The notes under the pieces are model-generated. The model had not been told where the DNA came from. It ran no database searches and was given only the letters and a program-made list of their open reading frames with translations. Both the position numbers and the translations under genes were made by a program. From Gemmatimonas sp. (lineage in GTDB: Bacteria > Gemmatimonadota > Gemmatimonadetes > Gemmatimonadales > Gemmatimonadaceae), in contig OZ257156.1 in the NCBI GenBank assembly GCA_965279375.1, positions 4,960,001-5,024,000 on the forward strand: DNA of 64,000 bases, given 5' to 3'. Shown here piece by piece: positions 1,162-10,123 of the stretch (its first letter is position 1; every line of letters begins with the position of its first letter).

Positions 1162-1778
1162 GCATGACGCCAGCTGAAAACGAAGTGCCACAGCAGCAGG
1201 CGCCACAGCATGATGCGCCGCAGCGTGCGCCCGAGCCGGAGTTGCCGGCGTGGGCCAAGCGCCGCGCGTCCAACGGTCAGATCCCGGATGGCGTGCTGGC
1301 GGTCTTTATCGGCCGGAAGTGGGAGAACACCTACCGACGGAAGTTCGCGCCGTTTCTCGAAGACCCCGCATTCGTGCCCACCTGGAACTGGAGCGCGGCG
1401 CTGACCCCGTTCTGGTTCCTGTATCGCAAACTGTATCTCACGTTCGCGATCTTTTTCATTGTGCCGGGGTTTGCCTTCCGATGGCTGACGGGCTCCGACA
1501 CGATCCTGACCATGCAGAACATCCAGCTGCCGGAGAACCAGCCGCTGGTACTGATGAACTTTGCGGTGTACCTGTCGAGCGGCATCGCGGCAGGTGGAAC
1601 CGCCAATTGGTTCCTCTTTCGCCGTGCTCAGGCGGCCACTCGTTTGGTGACGCTGCAGCAGTTGCCCGATGGCGAGGCGATGGGACTGTTGCAGCGGATC
1701 GGTGGCGTGAATCGCAGCGGGACGCTTCTGTTTCTGACGCTCTCGCTCGTGCTGGCGGTCGCGCAAGCGAGCGCATGA
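1158..1778 (+). CDS. DUF2628-like membrane protein
   Basis: ATGA overlap with the upstream stop; WNWSAAL..FWFLYRKLY motif; several hydrophobic segments. Confidence 0.7.
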   Translation: MSMTPAENEVPQQQAPQHDAPQRAPEPELPAWAKRRASNGQIPDGVLAVFIGRKWENTYRRKFAPFLEDPAFVPTWNWSAALTPFWFLYRKLYLTFAIFFIVPGFAFRWLTGSDTILTMQNIQLPENQPLVLMNFAVYLSSGIAAGGTANWFLFRRAQAATRLVTLQQLPDGEAMGLLQRIGGVNRSGTLLFLTLSLVLAVAQASA

Positions 1779-1901
1779 CGGAGCGGGATGACGCGCCGGC
1801 GGGTCGCCGCCGGGACATCGCGGTACGCGTCGGCCGGTTGGCCGGCGCGACGGTGTCGAGGCTTCTGGTGACGCGTCGTCCCTCCCCGATGTTGTTCATC
1901 G

Positions 1902-2438
1902 ATGACTGACGCGGAGTTGGTCGCCCGGACGCGTGGCGGAGACGCCAACGCGTTCGGGGAACTGGTGTCACGGTACTACGAGCCGTGCCGTCGTTTTGCG
2001 TACCACATGCTGGGGGATCGATCGGATGCGGAGGATGTCGTGCAGGACACGCTCATGCGGGCGTATCGCGCCATCGACCGCTACGACGAGCGCGATCAAT
2101 TCCGCGGTTGGCTGTTCCGCATTCTGACGAATCAGTGCCGCAATGCCCTTACTTCGCGTGGTCGGCGTACCCGACGGTTTGTACAGGATGACGTCGCCCT
2201 CGAGCAGGCGCATGCGCCCACCTCAGGGCTGCAACTCGGCACCGAGCATGCCGCCCTCGCGCGCGCCATGGCGCAGCTCGACCCGCTCCAGCGCGAAGCA
2301 CTGCTCCTCAAGTATGCCGAAGGGCTCGAGTACACCGAGATGTCGGCGATAACCGGCGTGGGAGAATCGGCGCTCAAGATGCGCGTCAAGCGCGGCAGCG
2401 AGCGGTTGCGCGGATTGCTGGGGTCACGCGATGAGTGA
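1902..2438 (+). CDS. ECF RNA polymerase sigma-70 factor
   Basis: Region 2 (DAEDVVQDTLMRAY, FRGWLFRILTNQC) and region 4 (REALLLKYAEGLEYTEMS..ALKMRVKRG). Confidence 0.93.
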   Translation: MTDAELVARTRGGDANAFGELVSRYYEPCRRFAYHMLGDRSDAEDVVQDTLMRAYRAIDRYDERDQFRGWLFRILTNQCRNALTSRGRRTRRFVQDDVALEQAHAPTSGLQLGTEHAALARAMAQLDPLQREALLLKYAEGLEYTEMSAITGVGESALKMRVKRGSERLRGLLGSRDE

Positions 2439-3123
2439 CGACGGCATGCTGCGCTTTCCTGCCCCGGATGACGCGCCCGAAGACGCGGCGACGGTTGCTG
2501 CCAACGCGGCGCTCGCTGCGCGCGTCGCGGCCATGTACGCGGCCACGCCGGTGGCCGATGCGGGCGCGGCCGATTGCTGCGCTCGCGCCATTCTCACCGA
2601 GCAGATGCACGCGACCGCGCTGGGCGTCGGCGACAGCGTGCGCCCGCGCTGGTGGTGGGGAGCGGCCGCTGCTCTCGTGGTCACCGCCGCGCTGGCCAAC
2701 TGGCAGTCGCGTCGCAGCAGTTCTGGCACCAGCGCGTCGCCGTCAGTCGCACAGGCCGCGCCCGCACTTTCGGCTCCAATGGAGACAATGCCGGAGTCGC
2801 TGCCGATGACGGGCATGCCCTTTGGGCGGGTGACGCCGGTTGCTGGGGGCGATGCGATCCGTTTCGACCTCAGACTCCCCTCCTCCGCCAAAGCCGTTGC
2901 CATTGTGGGCGACTTCAACGGGTGGGATGCCGGCGCCACCCCCATGCGCCCACGAAACGGCCAGAATTCGTGGTCCGCTCAGGTGGAGCTCAAGCCGGGG
3001 CGCCACGTCTACGCGTTCGTGATCGATGGTACGCGCTGGCTGGTGGACCCGCTCGCGCCACAGGTCTCCGACGCCGGCTTCGGCCCCTCCAACGCTGTGT
3101 TGGTCGAGGGAGGGCCGCAGTGA
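2431..3123 (+). CDS. Putative anti-sigma factor: one TM helix plus C-terminal CBM48/AMPK-beta-like glycogen-binding domain
   Basis: Overlaps the sigma stop; TM WWWGAAAALVVTAALANW; CBM48 motifs VAIVGDFNGW, LKPGRHVYAFVIDGTRWLVDP. Confidence 0.8.
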   Translation: MSDDGMLRFPAPDDAPEDAATVAANAALAARVAAMYAATPVADAGAADCCARAILTEQMHATALGVGDSVRPRWWWGAAAALVVTAALANWQSRRSSSGTSASPSVAQAAPALSAPMETMPESLPMTGMPFGRVTPVAGGDAIRFDLRLPSSAKAVAIVGDFNGWDAGATPMRPRNGQNSWSAQVELKPGRHVYAFVIDGTRWLVDPLAPQVSDAGFGPSNAVLVEGGPQ

Positions 3124-3812
3124 GCCTGGGCTTCGTTGGGCTCCTGCTCGTCGCAACGCAAGTTGCCGCTGCCCCGCTGGCGCCCAGTGCGCTCGCGCAG
3201 ACGCCGCCGGCTCGTGTGCCACAGCAGCTGACGTTCGACGCCGCGCGCTTCGACAGCCTCACCGCCCTCGCGCTGCGCTCGATCCTCGACAGTGCTTCTC
3301 AGCGTGGCCTGCCGACGGCTCCACTCATCGGCCGTGCGCTGCAGGGCGCCGCGCTGAAGGTCGGTGGCCCGCGCATTCTGCTGGCCGTCCGAGAGTACGC
3401 CGTCGCGCTCGAGGTCGCCCGCGAAGTGCTGGGGCCGGAGTCGACGGTCTCCGAGCTCGATGCCGGCGCCGCCGCGCTCAAGTCGGGGATCGACGAGAAG
3501 GCGCTTTCGGCGATCCGTTCGACGCGCCCAGCGGGCACAGCCGTGATGCCGCTGATGGTGCTCACCGACATCGTCAAACGCGGCGTTCCGCAGGCGTCCG
3601 CGCGAGATGCGGTGACGTCGATCGCCCGCCTGCCCCGCTCGGACGAAACGCTGATGGGGCTGCAGGTCACGGTCGCAAAGAATCAGTTGAGAGGGCCGGG
3701 TATGGCCGTAGACGCGATGCAGCGCTATCTTCGCGGCACGGTCCCCGGTAGTGGTCCGCCGTCCGCGCCCGCGACGGTAGATCGTAAACCGATCCGTCCT
3801 CCTGATCCGTGA
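3120..3812 (+). CDS. Hypothetical exported helical protein
   Basis: GTGA overlap at 3120-3123; signal-peptide-like N-terminus (MSLGFVGLLLVATQVAAA); Ala/Leu-rich helical pattern. Confidence 0.7.
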   Translation: MSLGFVGLLLVATQVAAAPLAPSALAQTPPARVPQQLTFDAARFDSLTALALRSILDSASQRGLPTAPLIGRALQGAALKVGGPRILLAVREYAVALEVAREVLGPESTVSELDAGAAALKSGIDEKALSAIRSTRPAGTAVMPLMVLTDIVKRGVPQASARDAVTSIARLPRSDETLMGLQVTVAKNQLRGPGMAVDAMQRYLRGTVPGSGPPSAPATVDRKPIRPPDP

Positions 3813-5233
3813 CGCCCGCCCCCCGCTTCCTTCGCGCGTCGCGCCGCCGCTCTCTGCTGAGCCGCGGACCGGCTGTGCCGTGCGCGCTGGTCACGATGGT
3901 GCTGGTGGCGAGCCCGCTCTCCGCCCAGCGACGCGGTGATGCGCCGGTGGCTCCGTCGTCGGCACTCGGCCCGGCCACGGAATCGCCCACGCTCGCCGTC
4001 ATGGGACTCGCGTCGCTTCCTGATGGCAGCGGCAACGCCCTCGCGCAGCGCAACGCACTCTGGATGGGCGCCACGCAACCGATCGGCCGACTGGGGCGCG
4101 TGCGCTTCTCGTCGATCGCGACGGGCAACTATCTGGCCAAGGAAGCGGTCGGTACCGGATCCTCAGTCGAGGGACTTGTCTCGTTGCGCGCGCGATCCCG
4201 CGTTGGCGAGGGACAGATCTGGAGCGCCGTCAGCTACGGCCGCGCCTCGGTCAACGGCGACATGGCATCGCGTCTGCTCGGCAACTCCGTCGGCATGCTC
4301 CCCGGTGGGTTCGATGGCGCGCGCGCGGACACAACGATTTCGCGCCGCGTCGATGTTGGCACGATCGGACGCGCCGAAGCCGGCATGATTCACAACGTCT
4401 CGGGCGTCGAGCTTTCGTTTGGATTCTCGGTCGAGCGCGCCACGCGCGTGACCACGCAGACGTTGCGCATCGACCAGTCCTCCAACGGACTGCCGCCGCT
4501 ACCCACCGCCGATCAGGTCAGCACCGTTCGCACGCTCCGGGCATTGCAACGGCGCGATATCGCCACCGGTGTGGCCTCTGCGGGCTTCAACACCGGCCCG
4601 ACGACGTGGCTGGTGTCCGTCACGGCGCCCGTTGCCACCTGGATCACGAGCGACGCCCTCTCGCCGCGTCCGCGCACGGCGCCCACCGTCGCATCGCTCG
4701 CGATCGCGCAACCGATCACGGCGTGGCTCAGCCTAGTCGGCGCTGCCAGCACCAACTCGGCGTCCGTCGGGAGCACAGCACTGCGCGACGACGTTGGACC
4801 CGGACGTGGCAAGAACTTCGCACCGGTGGTCGCGCTCGGTGTGCGTATTGCGCGGCTGCCGTTCCGCGGCGGCGATGACACGCCGCGCGGCATTCTCTCC
4901 TTCGAGACGCGCACGATCGGCTCGGTGGACTCGGCGGCGATCGATCTCGCGGAACCGGCGGCCGACGCCGACACGCTGCGCGTCGTGCTGCTGATCGACG
5001 CGCCGAAGGCCGAGTCGGTGGAGATCATGGGTGACGCCACGCAGTGGGTGGTCACGCAGATGACGCGCAATCGCAACGGCCGTTGGCGCGCGGAGCTCAA
5101 GCTCGCCCCGGGCATGCATCGCGTCACCGTACGTGCCGACGGCGGTCGCTGGATTGCACCGCCCGGCCTGCCGATCGGCAGCGACGACTACGGCAGCGCC
5201 GTGGGCGTCATTGTGGTGAAGGGGAAGCAGTAG
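3809..5233 (+). CDS. Exported protein with beta-strand-rich N-region and C-terminal CBM48-like domain
   Basis: GTGA overlap; signal peptide ending SPLSA-Q; C-terminal VEIMGDATQW..WRAELKLAPGMHRV..DGGRWIAPPG..DDYG. Confidence 0.75.
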   Translation: MTPAPRFLRASRRRSLLSRGPAVPCALVTMVLVASPLSAQRRGDAPVAPSSALGPATESPTLAVMGLASLPDGSGNALAQRNALWMGATQPIGRLGRVRFSSIATGNYLAKEAVGTGSSVEGLVSLRARSRVGEGQIWSAVSYGRASVNGDMASRLLGNSVGMLPGGFDGARADTTISRRVDVGTIGRAEAGMIHNVSGVELSFGFSVERATRVTTQTLRIDQSSNGLPPLPTADQVSTVRTLRALQRRDIATGVASAGFNTGPTTWLVSVTAPVATWITSDALSPRPRTAPTVASLAIAQPITAWLSLVGAASTNSASVGSTALRDDVGPGRGKNFAPVVALGVRIARLPFRGGDDTPRGILSFETRTIGSVDSAAIDLAEPAADADTLRVVLLIDAPKAESVEIMGDATQWVVTQMTRNRNGRWRAELKLAPGMHRVTVRADGGRWIAPPGLPIGSDDYGSAVGVIVVKGKQ

Positions 5234-5251: not shown

Positions 5252-6031
5252 TCAGAACGTCAGCGAACGCAGCGCCTGTGTACCACTTCGACTGGCAGTC
5301 ACGCGTGTGCCATCCCGCATCTCCACGCTGAGTCGGCCCGCGTCGAACGGGGCCAGCGCTGCCACGTAGTCCAGATTCACTGCGTGCGAGCGGTGAATGC
5401 GAACGAAGCGCCGACCGTCAAGCCGCTCCAGCAGCGACGCCAGTGTGATCGTGAGCAGATGTCGACGTCCGCGCGTGATGATGGCGACGTAGTCATCCTC
5501 CGCCTCCAGCCGCTCGATGTCGGCGACCGCCACCGGGACGATGCGTCCCCGCTCCCGCACGAAGACGCGCGACAAGGTGCCCTGCACCGCGCGCAAGCGG
5601 TCCACCACGGGGCCGTTCTCGTCGGTCGCAAGCGCCCGTTCCGCTCGGCTCACCGCCGTAGCGAATCGCTCCGGGCCAAAGGGCTTGAGCAGGTAGTCCA
5701 CAGCCCCGAGTTCGAACGCCTGCACCGCGTAGCTGTCGAACGCCGTGGTGAAGATGATTGCGGGCCTATGGACGATCCGTTCGAGCACGGCGATGCCCGG
5801 CAGCTCCGGCATCTGGATGTCCAGAAAGACCAGCGACGGTCGCAACCGATCGATGAGCGTGACGGCGCTCGCACCGTCGGCCGCGTCACCGACCCAAAGC
5901 AATCCAGGCGTCGCCTCGATGAGTCCACGCAGATGCATCCGCGCCAGCGGCTCGTCTTCGCAGACGAGCACCGTGAGTGGGGTCGCGGGCGCGTCCGCCG
6001 CGAATGGCCGAGCGTCGGTGGGTGTGTTCAT
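5252..6031 (-). CDS. LytTR-family response regulator
   Basis: Receiver (EDEPLAR, FLDIQMP, DYLLKP) plus LytTR domain (EAEDDYV, FVRIHRSHAVN). Confidence 0.95.
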   Translation of the reverse strand: MNTPTDARPFAADAPATPLTVLVCEDEPLARMHLRGLIEATPGLLWVGDAADGASAVTLIDRLRPSLVFLDIQMPELPGIAVLERIVHRPAIIFTTAFDSYAVQAFELGAVDYLLKPFGPERFATAVSRAERALATDENGPVVDRLRAVQGTLSRVFVRERGRIVPVAVADIERLEAEDDYVAIITRGRRHLLTITLASLLERLDGRRFVRIHRSHAVNLDYVAALAPFDAGRLSVEMRDGTRVTASRSGTQALRSLTF

Positions 6032-7089
6032 GCGGGGATGCGCACCGAGATGGCGTAGCCTTCGCCAACGGCCGTGCGCACGTCGACGGTAGCCGCGTCT
6101 CCGTAGCGAGCGGCGAGGCGCTGGCGCAACGCGTCGAGCCCGATGCCGTGACTGCGCACGCCATCCGCACTCGACACCCCCGGGCCGTCATCACGCACTT
6201 CGAGCACAAGCGTGTTGGCCTCCAGTCGTCCGCCAACTTTCACCGTGCCTCCCGAGGCGTTCGGCGCAACGCCGTGCTTGACGGCATTCTCCACCAGCGA
6301 CTGCAGCACGAAGCTGGGGACGCGGCGCTCCAGCGCCTCGTGCGTGATCTCGCGATGCACGCGCAATCGATCACCAAAGCGCAGCGCCTCGAGCGCGAGA
6401 TAGGCCTCGGTGAAGGCCACCTCGTCGGCCAATCGCACCTCTTCGCGTCCGCCCTGCTTGGCGTCGAGTACGTAGCGCAGCAGCGCGCTGAGCCGCTCGA
6501 CCGCCTGCTCAGCGGCGGCGGGGTCGTGCCGAATGAGCACCGTGACGGAGTGCAGCGTGTTGAAGAGAAAGTGTGGATCGAGTCGGCCGCGCAGCGCCTC
6601 GAGTTCCGCGCGCGCACGAAGCGCATCGAGGCGATCGAGACGTGCCTCCTGCTCGCGTGCCCGCGCCGACGACTGGCGTGCCCAGACCACGCCGCAGAGA
6701 GCGAAGTAGATCAGTACACCTTCGAACGTCTGCCAGTGCAGCCACGGGGCGACGAGTCGGCCGACCGTCGACCAGTCCGATGCGTCCTTCCAGATGCCCA
6801 GCACGATCAGCGCGTCCCATGCGGCGGCGTAGAACAGCGCCATGCCCGCGTGCACCAGAAAAAACCGCGGCGTGGGACGCGCCGGCCAGCTCCATCGTTG
6901 CGACAGCCATTGCACAACGACGCCAAGCACCGCAGCGGTAGCCACGGTGCTGAACGCGGCGACGATCGCATCGCGTGCCGAAACACCGCTGGACGCACCG
7001 ATCAGCAGTGCATAGATGAGCACCAGCGGCGTCCATGCCGCTGCGTACCACGCGCTGCCACGCACCAGAGCCGACCAATTGCGCGTCAT
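6028..7089 (-). CDS. LytS/YehU-type sensor histidine kinase
   Basis: Multiple N-terminal TM helices; LDPHFLFNTL H-box; LVENAVKHG; DDGPG; GIGLDAL. Confidence 0.95.
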   Translation of the reverse strand: MTRNWSALVRGSAWYAAAWTPLVLIYALLIGASSGVSARDAIVAAFSTVATAAVLGVVVQWLSQRWSWPARPTPRFFLVHAGMALFYAAAWDALIVLGIWKDASDWSTVGRLVAPWLHWQTFEGVLIYFALCGVVWARQSSARAREQEARLDRLDALRARAELEALRGRLDPHFLFNTLHSVTVLIRHDPAAAEQAVERLSALLRYVLDAKQGGREEVRLADEVAFTEAYLALEALRFGDRLRVHREITHEALERRVPSFVLQSLVENAVKHGVAPNASGGTVKVGGRLEANTLVLEVRDDGPGVSSADGVRSHGIGLDALRQRLAARYGDAATVDVRTAVGEGYAISVRIPA

Positions 7090-7095
7090 GCCAGC

Positions 7096-7881
7096 CTAAC
7101 GTCCGGTTACTGCCGGTCGCAGGATGTCGCGCACCCAGCGGTACTGCGGCTCGAGTGCGAGCGCCTTGTCATACGCCGCCCGCGCCGCGGCCGCGTTGCC
7201 GCGCTCCTTCTCCATCTGCCCCAACCACGCGTACGCTTCCGCAGCCCCCCACGCGGGTAGCGGTCGCACGGGTGCATCCGACGCGAAGGCGGCGACCGCC
7301 TTCTGCACGAGCGCGTAGCCCTTGTCCTTGCCACCGCCCCACATCGATGGCGTGAACCATGCGGCGACGCCAGCGAGCAGGAGCACGCGCGGATTGGTCG
7401 GTCCGAGCACGCGCGCACTGTCGCCCGCCTCGGAGGCCGCCGATCCGTAACGCATGCCGGCGACCATGCCTGTGCCAGCCATCGTACCCAGGCACGAGGA
7501 GAGGAGCGCCTGCGTTTCGGGCAGCGATCGTGCAGCCGCCGAGCGCCGCAGGAAATCGATCGCCTTGAGCAACATCGCTTCCTGCGCATCGGAGATCGTC
7601 TCGTCGTCGCGCTGACGCATCACCTCGCGATAGAGACCGTAGCCACGAAAGTGCAGCAGCAGCGGATCGTTGGGGAACGCCGTCAGCGCCTTGTCGAGCA
7701 TCGCGCCCGCCGCGGCGAGTGCAGCCGCATCGTCGTCGCGCGCGGCCCGTTCGATCACCACGCGCGCGCTGTCTGCCCAGCGCGCGCTACCCGTGAGCGG
7801 CGTAGCGGGTTGTTGCGCCGAAAGCGGCGACACCAGCGGCAATGCAATCGTGAGAGACAGCAACATGGCAGCGACGAGCAT
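7096..7881 (-). CDS. Exported TPR-like protein
   Basis: Signal peptide (MLVAAMLLSLTIALPLVSPLSA-Q); TPR-like helices (AEAYAWLGQ..ARAAYDKALALEP); FTPSMWGGG motif. Start chosen at ATG 7881, just after the receptor stop. Confidence 0.75.
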   Translation of the reverse strand: MLVAAMLLSLTIALPLVSPLSAQQPATPLTGSARWADSARVVIERAARDDDAAALAAAGAMLDKALTAFPNDPLLLHFRGYGLYREVMRQRDDETISDAQEAMLLKAIDFLRRSAAARSLPETQALLSSCLGTMAGTGMVAGMRYGSAASEAGDSARVLGPTNPRVLLLAGVAAWFTPSMWGGGKDKGYALVQKAVAAFASDAPVRPLPAWGAAEAYAWLGQMEKERGNAAAARAAYDKALALEPQYRWVRDILRPAVTGR

Positions 7882-7894
7882 ACGTCGCAGCGTG

Positions 7895-10123
7895 TCAGTT
7901 GAGAAGTGTAGCGCCGACATAAAGAGCCCGATTGAAGGGAGCACGAACCGGCAGACGCTCGCGATAGTCGGCACTCCACCGATACCGCATCACGTTGCCG
8001 CGATTGAAGACGTTGGACAGGTCACCCCACAGCACCATGGCACGTCCACTGCCGATAGGCCGATACCAACTGGCGGAGACATCGCTGCGCCAATACGACG
8101 GCAGCCGTTCCGCATTCGGTGCACCGAAGACGGGTGATGCACGTCCGTTCTGCTGCACCACGTCCACGATGTCGGTGAACGGGCGCCCGGTGGCATGACG
8201 TAGCGCCGTGCTGATCGTGAGGGGACCGATGTGGCGCTCGGTGATCCAGCTGACCGAATGCCGCACGTCGCCGATCGCCGGAGCGTCGATGCCCGTGTCA
8301 GGATCATCTCGGTGCGAGCGCACGACGCTCCACGCCACGCGGCTACGTGCCGACGCGCTCATGCGGAATCGCAGCAGTAGATCCACGCCGCGCGCGTGCC
8401 CCGCGCCGTTCCCCGCTACGCCGAAGTCGCGCGTGAACTGCCAGAGATTCGCATACGCCTTGTCGTAGAACTCAACGCGCAGCCCCGTGCTGTCGCCGCC
8501 CCACTGCATGCCCACGATCGATTCGCGCACCCGCATCGGGTCGAACGCACGCTCACCACCTTCGGGGCGATAGAACGTGGGCTCGGCGACCTGATGCAGC
8601 ACGCCCCACGCCGCCGTGAAGCCGAGTGTGCCACGCTGCCACGCCACTGACAGACGCGGGTCCACCGTGCGCACGCCAGTGATGGTGGCGCGGTCGGTGC
8701 GCACGCCACCGGCAATGCGTACACCGTGCGTGTTGCGCGCGACGGCCTCCACGAACGCGCCCGTCCGATCGCTCCGCACGTCGGCCACAAAGAGCGGTCT
8801 TGCGGCGCTGTCGCGACTGGTGAGCATGCCATCGTAGTAGGCGTCGAGACGCTCCACGTCCCCGCCCACGCGCAGTTCGAGCCCGCGGTCGGAATGCCAA
8901 CCCAATGAGCCCACGACATGCGTGGCACCGAGTCGCGTTCCGAATTGCGTCCCGTCCACCGTCTCGCGCCGGTCTACTGTGGAGCGCGCGACGGTGACAG
9001 CGGGACGAAGTACCGTTGCGCTGTCTCGCCACGAAAGCACGAGCATCTCCTGCCCCGTGCTCGCGGCATAGCGGCTGCCGCTCTGCACGCCAGCATCGCC
9101 GACGCCTACTCGTGACGCATCGCGCAATCCGAACAAACGGATCCGTCCGGCTTTGCTGCTCTGCCACTCGACGGTGCCGCTCACGTCGCCGCCACGCGGT
9201 GGTGGATCGTACGGCTGTGCCTCGCCAAAGATCGCCACCAGCGGCGTCAGCGATCGCACGTTCGCCGTCGCGCGTACCCCCAGTCGCGCGTGCGGTGCGA
9301 GCGCCGCGGACACTCCTGCGCTCCCCACCGACAGCGTCGCGCTGCCCGTCGACTTGGCGGGGCGCCCAGCGGTTTCCATGCGCACGAGTCCGGAGAGTGC
9401 ATTGCCGTACTGGGCGCCAAATCCGCCCGCGGCGAAGACGGTCCGCTCGAGCAGGAACGGATTGACGGTCGCGGTGCTGTGGCCGAGTGGATTGTCGAAG
9501 CGTGCAGGTGAGAGAAGCCACGCGTCGTCCAGCAAGACGCGAGTCTCTGTGACATCGCCACCGCGCACGAAGAGCCCACTGCCTTCGTCCACCGCCTGTG
9601 GCCCTGGCAGCGTCTGCAGCGCCTTCGCGACGTTGGCCGCCGCGCCCGGTGTCTGTGCCACTTCCAGCGGTGTCAGCGTCGCCGAACGACCCGCGCCCAG
9701 CGTGTACTCGCCTGCCGCCACCACCGTCAGGGTGGAAAGCGACGGCGGCATCGGCTGGATCGCGAGCGCGATCGCCGTATCCAGTGGTACGCTCACATCT
9801 AGAGTCGCTGGCACGAATCCTACGCGACGCGCGACCAGGGTCGCGATGCCGCGATGCACCGTGCGCAACACGAAGGCACCGGCGCTGTCCGTTTCGCTTC
9901 GCTCCAGCGTTTCCAGCAGACTCACCGACACGCCGACTGCGCCTTTCCCTGACGGCAGCCGGACGATGCCGCGAACGACCGACGCTGCGTTGGTCTGCGC
10001 ATCCGCCGTCGCGCAGAGACCGGACGTCGCGCTGACGATCACGAGTGCATGCAGCGCGGCTCGTGCAATGCGCCTCAGGTCAGCGCATGGACTCGGTGCG
10101 TGGAAACGGAAAGAGGGTCGCAT
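7895..10123 (-). CDS. TonB-dependent receptor with N-terminal carboxypeptidase-regulatory-like domain
   Basis: Plug motif LQTLPG..GLFVRGGD..GGFGAQYGNALSG; barrel strands; C-terminal SNVFNRGN. Confidence 0.88.
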   Translation of the reverse strand: MRPSFRFHAPSPCADLRRIARAALHALVIVSATSGLCATADAQTNAASVVRGIVRLPSGKGAVGVSVSLLETLERSETDSAGAFVLRTVHRGIATLVARRVGFVPATLDVSVPLDTAIALAIQPMPPSLSTLTVVAAGEYTLGAGRSATLTPLEVAQTPGAAANVAKALQTLPGPQAVDEGSGLFVRGGDVTETRVLLDDAWLLSPARFDNPLGHSTATVNPFLLERTVFAAGGFGAQYGNALSGLVRMETAGRPAKSTGSATLSVGSAGVSAALAPHARLGVRATANVRSLTPLVAIFGEAQPYDPPPRGGDVSGTVEWQSSKAGRIRLFGLRDASRVGVGDAGVQSGSRYAASTGQEMLVLSWRDSATVLRPAVTVARSTVDRRETVDGTQFGTRLGATHVVGSLGWHSDRGLELRVGGDVERLDAYYDGMLTSRDSAARPLFVADVRSDRTGAFVEAVARNTHGVRIAGGVRTDRATITGVRTVDPRLSVAWQRGTLGFTAAWGVLHQVAEPTFYRPEGGERAFDPMRVRESIVGMQWGGDSTGLRVEFYDKAYANLWQFTRDFGVAGNGAGHARGVDLLLRFRMSASARSRVAWSVVRSHRDDPDTGIDAPAIGDVRHSVSWITERHIGPLTISTALRHATGRPFTDIVDVVQQNGRASPVFGAPNAERLPSYWRSDVSASWYRPIGSGRAMVLWGDLSNVFNRGNVMRYRWSADYRERLPVRAPFNRALYVGATLLN

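Follow-up and report, generated by a model that had tools for sequence, protein, structure and literature searches.

A predicted sigma factor switch across the envelope of Gemmatimonas

A 64,000-nt stretch of DNA from Gemmatimonas sp. (hereafter the window, to whose positions coordinates refer unless another locus is named) carries on its plus strand, at 1902..5233, a cassette of four genes for an extracytoplasmic function (ECF) sigma factor, a predicted anti-sigma factor bearing a family 48 carbohydrate-binding module (CBM48), an exported helical protein, and a predicted outer-membrane beta-barrel that ends in a second CBM48 fold. With high confidence, the architecture is that of a trans-envelope ECF switch. 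The cassette is real, widespread and uncharacterised, and it would work like cell-surface signalling, yet is not TonB-dependent. In the fuller account that I favour, both CBM48 folds would dock the helical protein, which would link the barrel to the anti-sigma factor until a change occurs at the outer membrane; this account is tentative and falls just short of an even chance.

A preliminary description of this DNA had claimed four translationally coupled genes without a glycoside hydrolase domain, and all open reading frames and overlaps were recovered at the positions it gave. Genes 1 (1902..2438) and 2 (2431..3123) overlap by 8 nt (ATGAGTGA), while genes 2 and 3 (3120..3812) and genes 3 and 4 (3809..5233) overlap by 4 nt each, both GTGA. 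No glycoside hydrolase domain was found among the Pfam matches of the four proteins. A chance arrangement is excluded because the gene order is conserved: across Gemmatimonadota, the sigma, the CBM protein and the helical gene lie side by side at 113 of the 137 hits of the helical gene.

Proteins encoded by the cassette

The product of gene 1 (178 aa) matched Pfam sigma region 2 (E 3.5e-21) and region 4_2 (E 4.2e-12) as well as, above cut-off, TIGR02937, and consists of regions 2 and 4 only, at the ~180 aa expected for an ECF sigma, which is how it had been annotated before.

Gene 2 encodes the predicted anti-sigma factor (230 aa), with Pfam matches above cut-off to AMPK1_CBM (PF16561, E 2.8e-9) and CBM_48 (E 3.6e-9). 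The protein has a helical N-terminal part, a short Arg-flanked hydrophobic stretch (~2650-2703), where residues 74-91 form an uncharged Trp/Ala run between arginines, and a C-terminal CBM48 fold (~2851-3114) whose best solved relatives are the CBMs of AMPK-beta. From this layout and from relatives I infer an N-in, C-out topology that places the CBM in the periplasm, and the N-terminal part would hold the sigma at the inner membrane. Net charge was more positive ahead of the best hydrophobic segment in 117 of 128 relatives, that segment not always being the true helix (it is not in the window's own gene 2 protein), and clear membrane helices occur in more distant homologues. An NCBIfam anti-sigma model matched weakly (E 0.024, far below cut-off).

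Gene 3 encodes a candidate periplasmic adaptor, with a signal peptide at about residues 1-26 (by eye) and nine helices in its AlphaFold model (predicted local distance difference test score, pLDDT, 93.6), in agreement with the exported helical protein described at first. It ends in a Pro/Arg-rich tail, and the final residue is Pro in 82 of 136 cases. No Pfam family was matched, Foldseek gave no match at E<=0.001, and the best VIA match was a designed repeat protein (Z 10.7). The fold searches thus gave no natural match in the PDB, an absence that does not make the fold new. The family is large and nameless, with 3012 representatives at E<=0.001, and an atlas search returned unnamed Gemmatimonadota clusters only. 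Among the best 150 of these representatives, five (529-595 aa) join the helical protein to a region that looks like a barrel and an end that resembles a CBM, and three of the four fusion proteins scanned gave an AMPK1_CBM match, which implies that genes 3 and 4 act as a single unit. In the literature consulted, mostly without subscription journals, no paper was found on the helical gene, the barrel-CBM48 protein or the whole cassette.

Gene 4 had been described as an exported beta-rich protein ending in CBM48. The CBM48 stands, but in place of a soluble protein the model of the mature form (132-row alignment, pLDDT 73) predicts a 12-stranded outer-membrane barrel (~3989-4852), followed by the CBM48 fold (~4967-5230). 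Between the twelve long strands, most of them amphipathic, long loops alternate with short turns. VIA placed the model closest to KdgM (Z 16.7, root-mean-square deviation (rmsd) 2.3, 168 residues aligned) and a COG4313 channel (Z 16.2), with autotransporter barrels and FapF at Z 15.3-15.9. Foldseek agreed on outer-membrane barrels, and an atlas search gave generic barrel clusters at 0.89-0.90. Since the scores are tied among barrels of unrelated function, the fold does not reveal a substrate. There was no plug, STN or TonB-related Pfam match. The modelled CBM superposed on AMPK-beta CBMs with a Foldseek template modelling score of 0.88 by target (rmsd 1.6), and its AMPK1_CBM match (E 2.4e-5) reached 24.9 bits against a cut-off of 26.8, so that of the two CBM48 domains first proposed, profile searches score that of gene 2 above cut-off and that of gene 4 just under it. 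In outer-membrane proteins generally, strand parity and loop pattern decide on which side a C-terminal domain lies; as the strands here are even in number and the last one is preceded by a long loop, the CBM of gene 4 would face the periplasm. Gene 4 also has a long basic N-terminal extension (3809-3925) ahead of its hydrophobic signal, conserved in 8/8 genus loci with the GTGA overlap; the database start lies 22 codons later.

Loss of a glycogen-binding lysine in both CBM48 folds

Residues were numbered by alignment to AMPK beta1. The gene 2 CBM keeps W165, W203, F217 and N221 (at W100, W133, the L146 position and N150), with Ala195 at K126, and the gene 4 CBM keeps W413, W448 and Y461, with Thr at K126 and Val at N150. 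A Lys or Arg equivalent to K126 was present in 0 of 145 anti-sigma CBMs and 0 of 87 barrel CBMs of the cassettes, and in 0 of 18 CBMs from those Desulfobacterota-phylum loci that have a helical gene. Where the locus lacks a helical gene, 42 of 48 CBMs had it. The position varies among about ten residues in cassette CBMs and is never basic. The N150 equivalent is lost in the barrel CBMs, where Asn is absent from the seven commonest residues. In AMPK beta1, K126Q is reported to abolish glycogen binding (PMC6274970). The conserved Trp cradle implies that the CBM binds something, a protein partner being the simplest candidate; the CBM48 folds are best read as modules that would dock the helical protein rather than as glucan sensors.

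The preliminary description had instead proposed alpha-glucan sensing, with the CBMs as sensor or interaction domains. Applied to the cassette as now modelled, the barrel would be an oligosaccharide porin and both CBM48s would catch maltodextrins entering the periplasm, leading to anti-sigma cleavage and expression of starch uptake genes in the manner of RsgI with cellulosome genes. This scheme draws on the conserved aromatic cradle, on the oligogalacturonate porin KdgM as top barrel match (tied, at Z 16.7, with non-sugar barrels), on exported starch-use genes in this genome, and on the glycogen sensing proposed for the sigma factor group ECF278s1 (PMC7826278). Against it stand the lost K126 equivalent, without exception in 145 anti-sigma and 87 barrel CBMs, and the constant helical gene, which it leaves without a role. 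The starch-use and glycogen loci lie far from both cassettes of this genome, and no GH13 gene adjoins either. Interaction thus fits the CBMs better than sensing, which is weakened, also by the fate of a promoter site in the starch locus described further below; I consider glucan sensing rather unlikely.

Coupling analysis of 145 paired cassettes, 87 of them with a barrel, gave a best anti-sigma CBM/helical pair at z 5.7 (F217 with an Arg of the helical protein), below shuffled pairings (6.1-6.5) and below sigma/CBM (6.2) and sigma/helical (7.4) pairs, the no-contact controls.

Two other observations concern CBM48 proteins. In some Desulfobacterota-phylum cassettes the second CBM48 makes up a small protein of its own, encoded before the sigma and bearing what looks by eye like a lipoprotein signal, and such proteins without the K126 equivalent were found at L138:1297-1746, L142:1495-1950 and L144:1492-1884. 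Two secreted proteins, P0275 and P0312, have three tandem CBM48 domains that keep the Lys, with no evident catalytic domain.

Conservation of the gene order

The helical gene was present in 90 of 151 genomes of the phylum Gemmatimonadota, in 1-5 copies. The adjacency of sigma, CBM protein and helical gene noted above (113/137 hits; 130 loci fetched) amounts to the conserved synteny that the preliminary description had named as a check. The full order of sigma, anti-sigma, helical and barrel gene was scored in 62 of the 130 loci, rising to 74 when a mis-scored anti-sigma or a second helical gene after the barrel is counted. In nearly all loci the helical gene comes immediately behind a CBM gene: apart from the 113 hits where this is the anti-sigma gene, it followed the barrel-CBM gene in 7/130 loci, and in 6/130 a helical gene stood behind each CBM gene (four scored SAHOH, and two SOHOH with the anti-sigma mis-scored). 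The gene 2 protein was matched in 37 of 41 related genomes, a count that includes CBM-only matches, and the named homologues come from Gemmatimonas species. A scan of a genome collection found the cassette in 21 of the best 80 loci, 20 from Gemmatimonadota lineages and one from Candidatus Eisenbacteria.

This genome holds a second full cassette (L021:6772-9985; G000 C1 ~1149771-1152984) with a shorter barrel gene, and all four of its AMPK1_CBM matches fall in the two cassettes. No GTGAC-N17-TGTT site was seen upstream of the L021 sigma. A gene upstream of that cassette (L021:6139-6735) has no Pfam match.

Beyond Gemmatimonadota, a CBM match was found in 76 of 301 genomes of the phylum of a Desulfocapsa genome. 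In the 30 Desulfobacterota-phylum loci fetched, a helical homologue was present in 16 and a sigma in 15, and the pair of CBM-anti-sigma and helical gene occurred with two separate sigma clades.

These patterns bear on the view that genes 1 and 2 are an ordinary sigma/anti-sigma pair, with genes 3 and 4 mere output (a porin and its helper) outside the signalling. Such a view would accommodate the barrel gene of four other loci (L034, L037, L056 and L061), which stands in a divergent operon, and a sigma/anti-sigma pair elsewhere in the genome (L022) that has a degenerate CBM and neither a helical nor a barrel gene beside it. It sits badly with the K126 loss common to both CBMs, with a helical gene that is fixed beside the CBM gene and doubled where there are two CBM genes, and with the travelling of that gene with CBM anti-sigmas of two sigma clades, and is very improbable.

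In the four divergent loci the barrel is preceded by a short protein with sigma region 2 only (Pfam E 2e-7 to 4e-3; L034:5580-5972, L037:5067-5573, L056:3641-4099, L061:3534-3944), a possible half-sigma regulator, and in at least two of them also by a small secreted protein.

A predicted autoregulatory promoter and the relatives of the sigma

A predicted autoregulatory, leaderless ECF promoter lies at 1868..1895 on the plus strand, with a -35 element GTGAC(G) at 1868-1873 and a -10 element TGTTGT at 1890-1895, ahead of the ATG at 1902. The motif GTGACG-N16-TGTT was found upstream of the orthologous sigma in 23/23 rows (22 different sites), with an unconserved spacer, and in these rows the sigma ATG lies only 6-7 nt past the motif, which fits a leaderless transcript. 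Phylum-wide, GT[GA]AC-N18-GT preceded 83 of 144 cassette sigmas (shuffle mean 2.8). The -10 element reads TGTTG(T) in the window's clade and GTCT, GTCA or GTAT in other Gemmatimonadota cassettes. The aligned cassette promoters showed no conserved A or T after the motif at the sigma70 -11 and -7 positions, so the motif is taken for an ECF promoter, in the simplest case that of the sigma itself; on this comparison it looks autoregulatory and bipartite.

Six sigmas from Desulfobacterota-phylum loci, with GTGAC-N17/18-GTA upstream (three exactly GTATA, by eye), formed a clade that is sister to the cassette sigmas of Gemmatimonadota. Support was 93 by the Shimodaira-Hasegawa-like approximate likelihood ratio test (SH-aLRT) in a first, quick tree and 94/92, just under the starred level, in a second, from which 10 long-branch genome ECFs were dropped and which retained 18 of the 41 Gemmatimonadota rows and was built without a mixture model. 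The cassette sigma is 34% identical to one of the six. Four more Desulfobacterota-phylum sigmas formed a separate clade with zinc-finger-type anti-sigmas, yet kept the CBM and the helical gene. From its Pfam and TIGR02937 matches and the tree, the cassette sigma is best called ECF278-like; its -10 element differs from that described for ECF278s1.

At least three further sigmas of the same clade are encoded in this genome, two with an upstream GTGAC box. The sigma of the L022 pair (L022:8468-9752, minus strand), the third of the clade (46% identity), is preceded by GTGAC-N18-GTTAG; its partner anti-sigma is the one with the degenerate CBM. Another sigma (G000 C1 2340646-2341679), sister to the cassette sigmas (99/98), has a GTGAC-N17-GTCC box and a 157-aa partner without a CBM.

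Candidate output of the sigma

With genes called by the analysis's own gene caller, GTGAC-N17/18-TGTT was found before 6 of 44 TonB-receptor-like genes in this genome (0 at ten other spacings) and before 5 of 2647 other genes, one of which is the sigma itself. In other genomes of the genus, 90 sites were fetched, of which 37 lay inside genes, 30 could not be assigned and 23 preceded a recognisable gene, the sigma in four cases. Nine of the 19 non-self sites precede TonB-receptor-like genes, six of them confirmed as SusC/RagA-like. The motif also stood upstream of 10 of 24 orthologues of one SusC gene, against 6 matches over ten control spacings, four of the ten having been known motif carriers beforehand. 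The sigma's output thus probably includes SusC/RagA transporters, a lead with about even chances. A genus-wide promoter count (284 sites, against 83 in the summed reversed-pattern control) was discounted, as the codon pair GTG-ACG is frequent.

One site, GTGAC-N17-TGTT, lies 440 nt before the SusC gene of a starch locus with two GH13 genes, a trehalase and an MFS permease, and speaks for glucan sensing as set out above. Only 2 of the 16 closer homologues (>=55% identity) retain it, and a link between starch locus and cassette was rejected as not conserved. The other motif-bearing SusC genes adjoin peptidase-like or unrelated genes (by eye).

That the candidate targets are outer-membrane proteins would also suit an envelope-integrity gauge, in which the CBM48s grip each other or a polymer that the cell makes in its periplasm, the helical protein determines their distance, and damage to the outer membrane or the width of the periplasm is reported to a sigma that raises outer-membrane proteins in the manner of a stress sigma. 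The same domain would face the periplasm from both membranes, and gene 4 shares the layout of OmpA, a barrel followed by a periplasmic domain; the phylum-wide presence in 1-5 copies, not tied to sugar loci, fits as well. Against it, no chaperone, protease or Bam gene was recognised (judging N-terminal sequences by eye) at the 25 promoter sites with the highest scores in this genome, and no periplasmic glucan is in evidence here for Gemmatimonas; the gauge is unlikely.

Matches at spacing 16 before SusC homologues were TTGACA promoters and not the cassette motif. A promoter-like element, TTGACA-N15-(T/C)GTTTC, is conserved 150-290 nt before a group of genus SusC genes (L422-L431, L433, L434 and L436).

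A proposed mechanism and its weak points

In the docking account, the inner-membrane anti-sigma factor and the outer-membrane barrel would each point a CBM48 fold into the periplasm. At rest, the helical protein would bridge the two folds and shield the anti-sigma factor, much as PupR is stabilised by a transducer domain. The bridge would be released when something changes at the barrel (a solute enters the pore, or the barrel or the link between the membranes is lost), whereupon the anti-sigma factor would be cut by regulated intramembrane proteolysis, a step assumed from other single-pass anti-sigmas including RsgI. The operon itself, read from GTGAC-N17-TGTT, and probably some genes for SusC/RagA transporters would then be transcribed by the freed sigma.

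Several points weigh against this account. Gene 2 has a marginal membrane helix, in that none of its Kyte-Doolittle windows of 19 residues attains 1.4, and among the 128 relatives the best 17-residue hydropathy has a median of 1.39 and is at least 1.6 in 26. Of the transmembrane protein with an outer CBM48 in the preliminary description, the CBM48 is confirmed, the helix is marginal, and a place in the periplasm would follow from the topology proposed above. The barrel gene was not found within the fetched stretch in 36/130 loci. The sugar cradle retains both Trp and the aromatic residue at the L146 position (W100 in 144/144 anti-sigma and 87/87 barrel CBMs), and the anti-sigma CBMs mostly keep N150 (93/144), so that a changed sugar ligand is a possible alternative to a lost one. 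As the cassette CBMs are kin, the K126 contrast may reflect one or two ancestral losses and not hundreds. The SusC sites cannot be assigned to the cassette sigma, because other sigmas of the clade have GTGAC boxes, and some of these sites also read as sigma70 extended -10 promoters.

A bolder proposal, which I regard as doubtful, is a distinct, TonB-independent class of trans-envelope signalling in which a carbohydrate-binding fold would have become a module for docking proteins on both membranes. The loss of K126 would open the two-Trp cradle to the adaptor's Pro/Arg-rich tail, the adaptor would link a small barrel to the anti-sigma factor, and the sigma would govern SusC/RagA importers throughout Gemmatimonadota, related systems being present in Desulfobacterota. 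Soils are rich in Gemmatimonadota, whose regulation has received little study, and the cassette occurs in most genomes searched (by the helical gene, 90/151), often in several copies. Should the reading hold, it adds a route for signalling from outer membrane to cytoplasm without TonB and a case in which the CBM48 fold has been put to use in binding proteins. Database labels of the kind 'glycogen-binding domain protein', like the suggestion that ECF278 senses glycogen, may then be mistaken. The promoter, being conserved, could be used as a reporter as it stands, and since the domains are small and soluble, the choice between ligand and partner binding is directly testable.

Genes flanking the cassette

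Directly upstream of the cassette lies a membrane protein gene (1164-1778, plus strand; weak DUF2628 match, E 0.005), kept beside the cassette in all 20 genus loci (L001-L020). It was rejected as a part of the cassette since the promoter intervenes and, among the fetched loci, the gene is present only in close relatives. On the other side, a convergent locus (5252-10123, minus strand) encodes a TonB-dependent receptor, a TPR protein, a LytS-type kinase and a LytTR regulator; it faces the cassette and was likewise not counted as part of it.

Comparison with known systems

The TonB-dependent transducer of the FecIRA type has 22 strands, a plug and an N-terminal STN domain, whereas the cassette barrel is 12-stranded, without a plug, and carries its domain C-terminal to the barrel, and the cassette adds a helical periplasmic protein. 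As far as FecIRA and PupIRB are described in the sources used, they share with the cassette an ECF sigma, a single-pass anti-sigma and an outer-membrane barrel encoded together (the last two as predicted for the cassette), and the use of one fold on both the anti-sigma and its outer-membrane partner (STN there, CBM48 here). The PupR STN and PupB NTSD share a fold, and the transducer's signalling domain stabilises PupR (PMC7186176). The initial likening to FecIRA, without a TonB receptor, has held up well, given the conserved synteny, the autoregulatory-looking promoter, the co-encoded barrel and CBM48s that would both be periplasmic.

Another close system is ECF278s1, listed for Desulfovibrio and Syntrophobacter only, where a single-pass putative anti-sigma with a periplasmic AMPK glycogen-recognition domain, a GTGAC/GTATA promoter and possible glycogen sensing have been described (Casas-Pastor et al. 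2021, PMC7826278). The putative anti-sigma with its AMPK glycogen-recognition domain at position +1 and the -35 GTGAC are common to both, while the -10 is GTATA there and TGTTGT in the window cassette. The passage on ECF278s1 names no helical gene, barrel or experiments, nor does it mention a missing K126 equivalent. The preliminary statement that no characterised system has this layout must therefore be narrowed: the sigma and CBM-anti-sigma pair is in print as a prediction, and the helical and barrel genes are absent from that description.

In Clostridium thermocellum, the membrane anti-sigma RsgI senses polysaccharides and undergoes regulated intramembrane proteolysis (PMC10328401), and SigI/RsgI resembles the scheme proposed for the cassette in placing an alternative sigma under a membrane anti-sigma whose sensing part points outward. 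As reported there, that system has a Sigma-I family factor, no outer membrane, an autoproteolytic periplasmic domain and demonstrated polysaccharide sensing; the cassette has an ECF sigma, a diderm envelope, CBM48s without the K126 equivalent, and no hydrolases nearby. The cassette sigma matches ECF models and gene 2 gave only CBM48-type Pfam matches, which sets both apart from SigI/RsgI.

At the level of single domains, the cassette CBMs share with the AMPK-beta CBM48 (PDB 1z0n, 1z0m, 4yef) the fold (rmsd 1.6) and the residues at W100, W133 and the L146 position, and differ in K126 (Ala in gene 2, Thr in gene 4), in N150 (Val in gene 4) and in their presumed periplasmic location. The modelled gene 4 barrel shares its fold with the KdgM/NanC porins, the COG4313 channel, autotransporter translocators and FapF (Z 14.9-16.7), and is set apart from these 12-stranded barrels by an identity of 7-12% and by its C-terminal CBM48.

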